From a virus (taxonomy: Duplodnaviria; Heunggongvirae; Uroviricota; Caudoviricetes), in the IMG/VR virus record IMGVR_UViG_2563366830_000018: DNA of 42,771 nucleotides; one strand, given 5' to 3'. Position numbers and translations under genes: made by a program. Shown here piece by piece: positions 26,939 to 28,003 of the stretch. The stretch's first letter is position 1. Each line of letters begins with the position of its first letter. Below the pieces are notes generated by a model. That model saw nothing but the letters and a program-made list of their open reading frames with translations. It had not been told where the DNA came from and ran no database searches.

Positions 26939-27556
26939 TCAATTATCTTCCAGGCCGGATGCTATCAACGAAAGCCTCTCAAAAAACGCTGTAGCAGCCT
27001 TGTCCAAAGTTGAATAAGTACTGTATTCTCCGTGTTCGGGACCAACCACTACCCATGGTCGTCTTTTTGGGATTCGGGACTTCTCAGAAATCACTGTTCC
27101 AGATATACCAATATCAATTGTTACACCTGTTATTATTTTCTCTTCATCTCTTTCCCTGAACTCAATTGCCATAAATGCCGTTTTTTTTCGTTTCCCGTTT
27201 TTAAAAAAATCAAATAAAGCAAAGCGATGCTCATTAAAATCAACACCCCATCGTCCTTCAGGATAAAGGGCATGAAAGTTGTCATTTACGCTCTGCATCG
27301 TCTCATAAGCTTTAACTTCTAAATCTCCATAGTGCATAGATACCGCGCAGGAGTCACTGGGTAACTGTATTTTCCCAAGATTGAAAACCTTTACTGCTCC
27401 AGAACTATGGCATCTTGCCCGCAATTTATCCCCATTTATACTAATCGGAGAAATATTCCTTAATGTTCCGGGCTGGCTCCCTCCTAAGTAAACGACTGTT
27501 AAAGATTGCTTATTTTCAATTGCATCAACTAATACATGCTCTACATTTTTATCCAT
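26939..27556 (-). CDS. Uncharacterised AT-rich cargo protein (about 205 aa) at the Q-proximal moron site
   Basis: ATG at 27556 preceded by GGGAGG; the track's longer start at 27583 has no SD. Soluble product with no recognised catalytic motif. Confidence 0.6.
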   Translation of the reverse strand: MDKNVEHVLVDAIENKQSLTVVYLGGSQPGTLRNISPISINGDKLRARCHSSGAVKVFNLGKIQLPSDSCAVSMHYGDLEVKAYETMQSVNDNFHALYPEGRWGVDFNEHRFALFDFFKNGKRKKTAFMAIEFRERDEEKIITGVTIDIGISGTVISEKSRIPKRRPWVVVGPEHGEYSTYSTLDKAATAFFERLSLIASGLEDN

Positions 27557-27596
27557 AATAACCTCCCAATGAACAGGTATCATCAGGAGGTTATAA
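27557..27596 (-). promoter_or_regulatory. RBS-sequestering hairpin in the leader of cargo gene X
   Basis: mRNA 5'-AUAACCUCC-(19 nt loop)-GGAGGUUAU-UAUG: a perfect 9-bp stem pairs the SD with an upstream anti-SD, ending 1-3 nt before the start codon. Confidence 0.55.
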
Positions 27597-27631
27597 TAAA
27601 ATATGATTATTTACTTTGATTGAATTTATTA

Positions 27632-28003
27632 CTATATGTAACAATCAATTTCTAAAGATACCCCCAACATTGCCAGACAACCGTCAATAAACCCTTCAGC
27701 TTTCTGCAGTCTGATAACAACCTGATTAAGTGATATCCCCAGTTTTACCCCCAACACCCGTAATGTAACCCCATACACATAATACATTTCCAGTAATTCG
27801 TATTGATACGGTTCCTTTTTCTTAAGAACTGTCATCGCAGAGCTAATGATCAGGCCATCGTCATCGCTACATTGCGGGCGGGATTTTACTTTCGAAGGAA
27901 TTAATCCCTTAAAACCTGCAGCAACAGATGACCATTCCACATCCTCGTGATTATTTGCCACCCATGCCCCCCAACGTTCAAGAACCATTTGAATATCACG
28001 CAT
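27632..28003 (-). CDS. Late antiterminator Q (QuuD-type, small Q family)
   Basis: Product from the ATG at 28003 (SD TGGAGAAAG) begins MRDIQMVLERWGAWVANNHEDV, closely matching recalled DLP12 QuuD; the track start is TTG. Confidence 0.85.
   Translation of the reverse strand: MRDIQMVLERWGAWVANNHEDVEWSSVAAGFKGLIPSKVKSRPQCSDDDGLIISSAMTVLKKKEPYQYELLEMYYVYGVTLRVLGVKLGISLNQVVIRLQKAEGFIDGCLAMLGVSLEIDCYI

Follow-up and report, generated by a model that had tools for sequence, protein, structure and literature searches.

A helix-turn-helix-less WYL-domain gene beside the antiterminator Q of a lambdoid phage, with its Shine-Dalgarno sequence locked in a predicted hairpin

The 42,771-nucleotide (nt) stretch of IMG/VR record IMGVR_UViG_2563366830_000018, which as a whole is called the window here, carries a cargo gene for a protein of 205 residues directly 3′ of its antiterminator gene Q. 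All the features of this module lie on the minus strand. Profile and fold comparisons indicate that the cargo protein is a WYL-domain protein without a helix-turn-helix (HTH) and that it belongs to a large uncharacterised family. RNA folding predicts that the ribosome-binding site and the AUG of the gene are inaccessible on any RNA that enters from Q. We give about an even chance to the reading of the module as a whole, namely that it encodes a tightly throttled nucleic-acid-sensing conflict protein, the translation of which depends on the 5′ end of its RNA; within this reading, what the protein binds, what it does, where the late promoter pR′ lies and how translation is unlocked are inferences.

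A word-indexed search returned only nine relatives of the cargo protein, and the size of the family was determined using an exhaustive profile search, which gave 952 representative clusters at E ≤ 1e-3, 186 of them at E ≤ 1e-30. The members are nearly all 185–210 residues long, typically about 195. The family profile matches the WYL domains of DriD (7u02/7tzv/8tp8; E 1e-4), BrxR and CapW in the Protein Data Bank (PDB), and 54 of the 90 aligned family members match the Pfam WYL family at E ≤ 0.1, the best at 4.8e-8. In the window protein, the WYL domain covers residues 1–64 (27365–27556), where helix α1 is followed by four strands in the same order as in DriD; the Sm/SH3-like five-stranded β-barrel with a preceding helix that is expected of a WYL domain was found. 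The original prediction, made from the letters of the window, had described a protein with no recognisable family and had proposed profile and structure searches as a check. These searches were carried out, and it was they that brought to light the WYL domain in the N-terminal part and its match to DriD.

In the alignment YLGGSQPGTLRNISP / YEGGSTPGRTREVTP, Tyr23, Ser27 and Arg33 of the cargo protein fall onto Tyr168, Ser172 and Arg178 of DriD, which hydrogen-bond the backbone of single-stranded DNA (ssDNA) (PMC9186387). Y23, G26, R33 and K56 are invariant in the 90 sequences, and F58 is nearly so; a mapping by topology only would place K56 and F58 on the strand equivalent to that of DriD Arg204 and Trp206. 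No HTH family of Pfam or NCBIfam was found for the cargo protein, and the HTH is missing because the protein opens with the WYL helix α1. The C-terminal α/β-sandwich domain covers residues 85–203 (26948–27304) in the order α-β3-(insert)-β2-α, with an insertion specific to E. coli at residues ~134–165 that is poorly modelled. This order differs from that of the DriD WCX domain (β-α-β-β-α-β-α), and the cargo protein has no sequence match to any WCX family. The Foldseek alignment with DriD reaches 124–132 columns but at a root mean square deviation of ~14 Å. A WCX-like role in dimerisation is possible for this domain. A PDB search with the single sequence returned nothing, a fold search of BFVD returned small WYL/SH3-like barrels only, and NCBIfam holds no family for the protein. 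In the literature, no paper was found that cites the protein accessions or PHROG 8498, and nothing specific on phage-encoded or HTH-less WYL proteins.

The coding sequence of the cargo gene extends from the ATG at 27556–27554 to the stop codon at 26941–26939 (26939–27556, 205 residues and the stop). The program-made list of open reading frames (ORFs) begins instead at an upstream in-frame ATG at 27583, which gives 214 residues. PHROG 8498 (205 positions) matches residues 10–214 of this longer ORF end to end (E 3e-126), and RefSeq has the 205-residue form (WP_000360285.1, “WYL domain-containing protein”, E. coli S88). The preceding Q gene (27632–28003; 123 residues) belongs to the Q21 family (PF06530, E 1.5e-47; RefSeq coding sequence), and its stop codon lies at 27632. 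The cargo gene has a G+C fraction of 0.396, whereas the window as a whole has 0.512 and the DUF968 gene, which precedes Q, has 0.564. Thus the original prediction was right in placing an ORF of about 205 residues after Q, in describing it as more AT-rich than its flanks, and in taking it for a cargo gene next to Q.

An identical protein is present on at least 1000 public contigs, where its only names are “hypothetical” or “WYL domain-containing”. The full unit, consisting of the distal part of Q, the gap and the cargo gene, was found in 51–74 of the 5,426 complete E. coli genomes (~1%) and in 52 IMG/VR loci. An intact ORF is present in ~50 loci, which fall into two clades. Clade 2, to which the Shiga toxin 2 (Stx2) prophage of strain 2014C-4587 belongs, has 81% nucleotide and ~70% amino acid identity to clade 1, that of the window. 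Between the cargo genes of the two clades, the proportion of synonymous differences (pS) is 0.49, the synonymous divergence (dS) is 0.79, and the ratio of nonsynonymous to synonymous divergence (dN/dS) is 0.21 over 195 codons. The low ratio at diverged synonymous sites indicates that the cargo protein is under purifying selection. Together, the evidence supports a genuine, horizontally acquired single-gene module beside Q.

The gap between Q and the cargo gene (27557–27631) is 75 nt long and AU-rich, with a G+C fraction of 0.253. Judging from its sequence, its first 37 nt (27595–27631) form an AU-rich, unstructured spacer, which is followed by the 5′ arm of a hairpin (AUAACCUCCUGAUGA, 27580–27594, containing the anti-Shine-Dalgarno CCUCC), the loop UACCUGU (27573–27579) and the 3′ arm (UCAUUGGGAGGUUAU, 27558–27572), in which the Shine-Dalgarno sequence (SD) GGGAGG lies at 27567–27562. 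The SD pairs with the upstream CCUCC within a perfect core stem of 9 base pairs (27594–27586 / 27566–27558), which ends 1 nt before the AUG. Beyond the core, the wobble pairs U27585·G27567 and G27584·U27568 and then further Watson-Crick pairs extend the stem to 15 base pairs with a 7-nt loop, and the predicted energy of this hairpin is −20.0 kcal/mol. In its context, the stem crosses one mismatch and reaches 20–21 base pairs, in which the AUG is paired as well. The spacing between the SD and the AUG is the optimal 5 nt and is kept in both clades.

The stability of the hairpin is beyond chance and is not an artefact of composition. The 45-nt segment that contains it has a predicted energy of −20.5 kcal/mol, which is the strongest of the 3,560 segments with a G+C fraction ≤ 0.40 (mean −4.7, standard deviation 2.9) and ranks 101 of 28,484 over all segments. 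The z-score is −5.2 for the region from −60 to +15 and −2.7 in a 103-nt context (dinucleotide shuffles). If the complementary strand is folded instead, each wobble position turns into an A-C mismatch, and the predicted energy is −14.5 kcal/mol; since the G·U pairs form on the sense strand only, this argues for a structure in the sense-strand RNA and against a DNA palindrome.

At 30, 37 and 42 °C alike, folding gives the SD a probability of 0.000 of being unpaired; the predicted energies of the leader at these temperatures are −27.8, −23.4 and −20.1 kcal/mol, respectively. When the RNA was truncated in silico, the SD remained fully paired with 5′ ends at the Q start codon, 27700, 27640 and 27600, and the probability of an unpaired SD was 0.004 with the 5′ end at 27590. 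It was 0.28, 0.26, 0.39 and 0.73 for 5′ ends at 27588, 27586, 27584 and 27582, respectively, so that, according to the folding model, the SD starts to become accessible only when the 5′ end of the RNA is at 27588 or further downstream. The original prediction had inferred translational control from a 9-bp stem over the SD, to be checked by RNA folding and by comparing 30 with 37 °C. The stem exists and is perfect but is only the core of the longer hairpin, and the strong translational control agrees with the predicted folding, in which the SD is locked. The folding check gave the stable, SD-burying stem; it gave no opening up to 42 °C, which speaks against control by temperature.

Between the clades, the non-coding 5′ arm shows one change in 15 nt (C to U, which turns C-G into U·G), as compared with the pS of 0.49 in the cargo gene, and the remainder of the gap aligns poorly and contains an 11-nt indel. 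Changes in the 3′ arm of clade 2 replace the two wobble pairs with Watson-Crick pairs and one A-U pair with an A·G mismatch. The clade-2 leader folds to −19 to −22 kcal/mol with its SD still paired. Among the variants within clade 1, T27595A (11 loci) gives 21 continuous base pairs, and U27568C (6 loci) turns the G·U pair into G-C. The hairpin is supported by conservation and stability, not by covariation. One locus (L025; IMGVR_UViG_2563366940_000006, 5238–5990) carries IS1 (InsA/InsB) in the hairpin loop, which replaces the anti-SD arm, and the predicted energy of its leader is only −7.5 kcal/mol; it can be regarded as a natural allele that is predicted to be unlocked. A search of Rfam returned nothing at or near the gathering scores for the hairpin or for the late leader described below; matches such as STnc130 and an ErsA-like RNA were below threshold.

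Promoters were scanned with a threshold of at least 9 of 12 matches, and terminators were scanned by consensus over 26300–28100. The terminator scan missed both the evident late terminator tR′ and the SD hairpin, and its negatives here therefore carry little weight. At the promoter threshold, no sense-strand promoter was found in the gap upstream of the hairpin, and the only sense-strand match in the gap, ATGATA-17-TATTAT (9/12), lies within the hairpin. The weak −10-like hexamer of this match, TATTAT (27598–27593), is combined with a poor −35; it reads TATAAT in 11 of 47 related loci and TACAGT in clade 2. A start site set by this hexamer would fall inside the 5′ arm. The original prediction had proposed the gene as a candidate for expression in lysogens; this is not borne out, as no such promoter was found in the gap upstream of the hairpin and every transcript that enters from Q is predicted to lock the SD. 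On the opposite strand, a promoter-like TGAACA-16-TATAAT (10/12; plus strand, 27570–27597) lies in the hairpin DNA and is directed antisense into Q. In clade 2 this −10 is weaker; by its position, the match resembles paQ of lambda.

The cargo gene is followed by a 130-nt spacer and then, 131–155 nt past its end, by a predicted intrinsic terminator (AACCCGCCACUGAGCGGGUUUUUU) with the stem 26809–26802 / 26795–26788 and a run of six U. Many lambdoid phages that do not carry the cargo gene have this terminator together with the preceding 30 nt (GUUAAGAGUGGUUACUUCGCCACACAACUU), and the same terminator is annotated as such in phage Ayreon. In Ayreon and the Stx2c phages, a long Q is followed by a lambda-like TTGCAT-17-TAAGAT with a pause-like AACGAT, and the same terminator hairpin stands ~50 nt on and is repeated after an inserted lipoprotein-like gene. 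The two copies of this hairpin are identical (L001 and L064, 1824–1850 and 2501–2527). The doubled tR′ on both sides of the lipoprotein-like gene looks like the footprint of a cargo entry downstream of pR′.

By comparison with other phages, the element at 26868–26785 in the window is probably, and in our estimate with good confidence, a Q-cognate pR′ with a short leader and tR′. The putative pR′ consists of a −35 TTGTGT (26868–26863), a 17-nt spacer and a −10 TAGTGT (26845–26840), and is followed by the late leader GUUAAGAGUGGUUACUUCGCCACACAACUU and the terminator tR′ (26785–26839). A TAnnnT hexamer abuts the leader in all seven Q21-family sequences compared, usually with a −35-like hexamer 16–17 nt upstream, which is poor in cdtI and WGPS2. 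Grouped by the sequence upstream of TAnnnT, these phages sort into the same classes as when grouped by the Q variable region. The window and clade 2 (L003), with Q proteins of 85% identity, share TTGTGTTATAACAAAAA, whereas PhiR40_1 and the DLP12-like prophage share TTTAC(A/G)..CGTAAAAAAT..TATGCT and have their own Q type; the DLP12-like prophage has essD, a holin gene, ~100 nt downstream of the element. The comparison of leaders covered L001, L063, L064, L066–L068 and L077. No sigma-dependent pause element was identified in the element at 26868–26785, and the published work on the pR′ region of Stx phages does not resolve this allele. Transcription from pR′ to tR′ probably yields an RNA of ~50 nt. 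Within the leader, CACACAAC is similar to the GcvB-target motif found in prophage RNAs directed against small RNAs (anti-sRNAs); the idea of an anti-sRNA like AgvB or AsxR could not be confirmed.

If this element is the Q-cognate pR′, the cargo gene comes before pR′ and forms the distal end of the early operon, which we regard as its most likely position. A different layout, with pR′ drawn directly after Q and the morons downstream, was given by Tree et al. (PMC4104026). A pR′ in the gap between Q and the gene was considered and rejected, as no promoter of at least 9/12 is present upstream of the hairpin, the gap is poorly conserved, and only 12–23 nt are available in other phages. In 569R4, WGPS2 and cdtI, convergent cargo ends 12–23 nt after Q, which leaves no room there for a promoter, a Q-binding element and a pause site.

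Cargo of 0.45–1.6 kb is present between Q and the leader in all the phages with a short Q21 that were examined (PhiR40_1, phiP27, cdtI, Stx2a_WGPS2, 569R4, mEp460_4F5, the DLP12-like prophage and both clades), and it is variable. In phiP27, the slot holds a homologue of PD-Lambda-1 (L22; L066, 1034–2263; PADLOC E 2e-89). In cdtI, WGPS2, 569R4, mEp460_4F5 and PhiR40_1, it holds one or two unannotated genes in reverse orientation, none of them in PADLOC, and in the DLP12-like prophage a reverse porin gene; the coordinates of further slot cargo are L067 817–2205, L068 662–2225, L063 1527–1973 and L065 2090–3152. The gap between Q and pR′ is a hot spot for cargo. It is distinct from the stx slot, and the clade-2 phage holds both kinds of cargo, each in its own slot: its stx2 lies ~2 kb downstream of the cargo gene, past the leader-terminator cassette and the tRNAs. 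The original prediction had put the gene at the position of morons such as stx and had given it its own terminator. The position is not that of stx2, and the terminator, although real, is probably tR′, in a cassette shared with phages that have no cargo gene. A classical moron has its own promoter and terminator and lies downstream of pR′, an arrangement that was not found for the cargo gene.

The Q gene is itself a mosaic. Its first ~176 nt (27828–28003) are common to many Q alleles at 83–93% identity, and other Q alleles of E. coli and phages match only this part. The G+C fraction is 0.466 in the first 176 nt and 0.383 in the remainder (27632–27827). The distal part encodes the variable region, residues ~55–100, which is putatively DNA-binding. 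In the complete E. coli genomes, the cargo gene is always accompanied by the same distal part of Q, and distal Q, gap and cargo gene are inherited together as one unit. A position of the cargo gene upstream of pR′ would explain this mosaic, since the sequence between the specificity region of Q and its binding site is dragged along; the cargo would be locked to Q because the two must stay together.

In other genomes, the family gene is a stand-alone accessory gene without a constant partner; a scan of genome contigs gave four loci only. In three marine phage loci, it stands immediately after a short CI-like repressor gene and divergent from a Cro/YdaS gene. In lambda, rexAB lies after cI, and these members are thus in a rexAB-like position. 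In Pseudoalteromonas phage PY3, the family gene lies between the integrase and a LexA-type repressor and is fused to an extra domain of ~150 residues, which is a separate adjacent gene in another genome. This domain corresponds to the C-terminal half of phrog_31886 (L060 768–1223; P0067; L069 2006–3115), and a tblastn search of the window and all loci found it nowhere outside L060, and thus not in the E. coli module. In Alteromonas, the family gene stands at the end of a satellite-like integrase-capsid-protease-portal element, in Flavobacterium in an island of small unknown genes, and on a Leucothrix contig among FRG, GmrSD_N, HEPN and NERD genes, i.e., in a defence island. It is also found beside Rha-type regulators. 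A few members end in transmembrane helices (P0089, P0212) or zinc ribbons, and the domain fusions (zinc ribbons, transmembrane helices, a DnaQ exonuclease) reveal no clear function. These contexts are as expected for a gene of conflict systems and do not tell which side it serves. A role in phage conflict is plausible in view of the PD-Lambda-1 homologue in the slot and the relatives next to CI and in a defence island.

In the mechanism that we propose, the product would be a cytoplasmic protein of 205 residues, in which the WYL domain, an Sm-like β-barrel, acts as a ligand sensor joined to the α/β-sandwich. The WYL domain would bind a nucleic-acid ligand, with ssDNA as the best guess, and the output would be exerted by protein-protein contacts or sequestration, in defence and exclusion or in counter-defence, and not as a transcription factor. 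With no recognisable promoter in the gap upstream of the hairpin, most transcripts would arise by read-through from Q upon induction or infection, and these would be translationally dead. With the SD locked on the read-through RNA, expression would need a different 5′ end, and appreciable translation would need one inside or beyond the 5′ arm. Such an end may be provided by a weak start site set by TATTAT (27598–27593) or by endonucleolytic cleavage of the 20–21-bp helix or its flank, for which RNase III is an obvious candidate. The 37 AU-rich nucleotides before the stem may serve as a ribosome standby or S1 site. Locks as tight as this are typical of dose-sensitive or toxic products.

Several observations weigh against this reading of a throttled nucleic-acid-sensing conflict protein. 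The window protein itself scores 16.5 bits with Pfam WYL (PF13280), below the cutoff of 21.8 (E 0.0085), and the positions of DriD Arg176 and Tyr192 are not conserved, being Thr31 and Leu45 here. Neither an effector nor an enzymatic domain was found in it, and PADLOC-DB 2.0 assigned it to no system and gave only generic CRISPR-associated WYL models (E 1.4e-3 and 6.6e-3). At the hairpin, the clade-1 variant G27562A (3 loci) breaks a pair and weakens both the stem and the SD, and the A·G mismatch of clade 2 affects one stem position. No two-sided compensatory change in the stem was seen among the clade-1 variants and clade 2. Distant homologues from other bacteria (30–37% identity) have no SD-locking hairpin, which makes it a regulatory feature local to the E. 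coli module. The putative position of pR′ comes only from comparison with other phages. In addition, the place of the E. coli gene in the early operon, where the scan found it no separate promoter upstream of the hairpin, fits lytic expression better than defence in the lysogen.

The hairpin might instead be mainly a transcription element, that is, a terminator or insulator that closes the early operon after Q (stem CCUCCUGAUGA/UCAUUGGGAGG, then UUAUUAU) or a DNA palindrome, with the overlap with the SD being secondary. We consider this unlikely but deserving of serious attention, since an 11-bp core stem containing G+C, with a predicted energy of −15 kcal/mol, is followed by 5 U in 7 nt, and PhiR40_1 has a hairpin just after Q, GGGGAG..CUCCCC followed by AUUUUAUUU, as does the DLP12-like prophage. 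However, the U-tract is interrupted and its bases pair in the extended stem, the anti-SD/SD pairing and the 5-nt spacing are kept in both clades, and any read-through RNA would still be blocked for translation; the scan did not call the hairpin a terminator, although it missed tR′ as well. The G·U pairs, moreover, favour a sense-strand RNA structure over a palindrome. It is also rather improbable, though still a serious alternative, that the protein is a counter-defence decoy, which is co-transcribed with Q and soaks up the ssDNA or other nucleic-acid signal of CapW/BrxR-type regulators or forms inactive complexes with them. The position at the end of the early operon, the lack of a promoter upstream of the hairpin, and the presence of the WYL and C-terminal domains with the HTH missing would suit a decoy, as would the sensing of ssDNA by CapW, DriD and PafBC (PMC11662680, PMC11804915, PMC9186387). 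In contrast, a sponge requires high expression, while the ribosome-binding site is locked at −20 kcal/mol; other phages carry the gene in lysogeny modules, either after the repressor or between integrase and repressor, and homologues are also found in a chromosomal defence island. A throttled sensor or exclusion protein is ranked above a sponge because tight locks suit dose-sensitive products and a sponge needs abundance.

A more specific form of the reading would make the hairpin a transcript-selective insulator for a self-dangerous sensor, a new single-protein ssDNA-sensing exclusion (abortive-infection) factor that replication of the prophage itself would trigger. The read-through RNA from Q would be silenced completely, and a weak start at TATTAT/TATAAT or an RNase cleavage would give low translation in lysogens. 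We hold this to be distinctly improbable; if it were true, the family of ~950 clusters would be a new type of defence, and the leader a novel means by which morons keep lysogenic expression apart from lytic expression. A modulator of prophage induction, in which the protein senses ssDNA as an antirepressor-like “split” WYL regulator with a separate HTH protein, is very unlikely. It is suggested by the three marine phage loci, where the gene comes next after a short CI-like repressor, and by the canonical WYL regulators, which are HTH-WYL-WCX fusions responding to ssDNA. In E. coli, however, the gene is far from the immunity region and sporadic (~1% of genomes), the LexA-type repressor of PY3 needs no helper, and the satellite-like element and the defence island have no adjacent repressor. 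We find it hard to believe that the gene is a silent passenger, a remnant never expressed, even though its ribosome-binding site is locked, no promoter was found upstream of the hairpin, and a gene trapped between the Q specificity region and its cognate promoter would hitch-hike whatever its function. This is at odds with the dN/dS of 0.21 over 195 codons at a dS of 0.79, the intact ORF in ~50 loci of two clades, the conserved SD and spacing, and the large family conserved elsewhere. An RNA thermometer, whose stem melts between 30 and 37 °C, is scarcely credible: the sequestration of the SD is the design principle of ROSE and fourU elements, but folding at 30, 37 and 42 °C led to its rejection, the 15 pairs are uninterrupted and without the typical mismatches or weak pairs, and Rfam gave no match.

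As for the neighbouring genes, the DUF968 gene lies at 29016–28021, upstream of Q. Past tR′, a 65-residue winged-helix-like ORF (26463–26660; PHROG 331, weak TrmB/MarR matches) is conserved as the first gene in all related phages. It is followed by an AraC-type regulator gene (25615–26328; PHROG 1450; NCBIfam E 4e-31, below the cutoff), a relative of YdeO/GadX between the late leader and the tRNAs, the position of which is taken by a methyltransferase in related phages, and then by three tRNAs (25586–25337) and the holin gene. The strongest local hairpin of the window, at 8008–8052 on both strands (−36 kcal/mol, G+C fraction 0.71), lies in a GC-rich part.

Regulators that activate bacterial immunity and the response to DNA damage sense ssDNA or a ligand through their WYL domain. 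A sensor-only family that is widespread, and is carried by temperate phages, a satellite-like element and a defence island, could be a minimal sensor-effector or a viral decoy. In clade 2, the gene lies directly upstream of the putative late promoter that drives stx2, so that it would act in clinically relevant prophages. The leader would be a simple case of 5′-end-dependent translation.

Compared with the known wHTH-WYL-WCX regulators (DriD, CapW, BrxR and PafBC), the cargo protein has the same WYL β-barrel with α1 and the four-strand order, shares with DriD the motif Y-x-GGS-x-PG-x-x-R including the residues that contact the ssDNA phosphates, has a second domain after the WYL domain that ends in a long helix, and is linked to the biology of defence and DNA damage. 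Unlike them, it has no N-terminal winged HTH, and would thus be no classical repressor or activator; its C-terminal domain has a different order and no WCX sequence match, and it is phage cargo that does not lie beside a regulated system. Leaders that sequester the SD are known from the lambda N leader with its RNase III site and from the “locked” mRNAs of hok and tisB with their standby sites. The present leader is like them in that both the SD and the start codon are paired within a very stable stem, that an unstructured AU-rich stretch lies just upstream, and that, according to the in-silico truncations, activation would need a new 5′ end or processing. It differs from them in that no processing site, antisense RNA or trans factor was identified, and in that the stem shows no covariation and is confined to two close E. 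coli clades. With the ROSE and fourU thermometers it shares the anti-SD/SD hairpin 5′ of the start codon, but it is far too stable and perfectly paired.

Like lambdoid morons and prophage defence cargo, the cargo gene is AT-rich, sporadic and a single gene in a recombination hot spot. It occupies the identical slot that holds the PD-Lambda-1 homologue in phiP27, and its distant homologues are found in the post-repressor position of rexAB. In contrast to a classical moron, it is without its own promoter and terminator, and it is part of no PADLOC system. A short leader RNA between pR′ and tR′ is an established concept for Stx phages (PMC7547250), and the putative element of the window resembles those of the lambda 6S RNA and StxS in having a constitutive-looking promoter, a leader of ~50 nt and a strong terminator upstream of the late genes; the leader is, however, far shorter than StxS (258 nt) and the 6S RNA (194 nt), and it has no Rfam match. 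The leader of the cargo gene is thus an ordinary anti-SD hairpin device in an unusually strong form and nothing categorically new, whereas the new features are the family and its architecture, the placement in a hot spot between Q and pR′ apart from the stx slot, and the predicted 5′-end-dependent lock.

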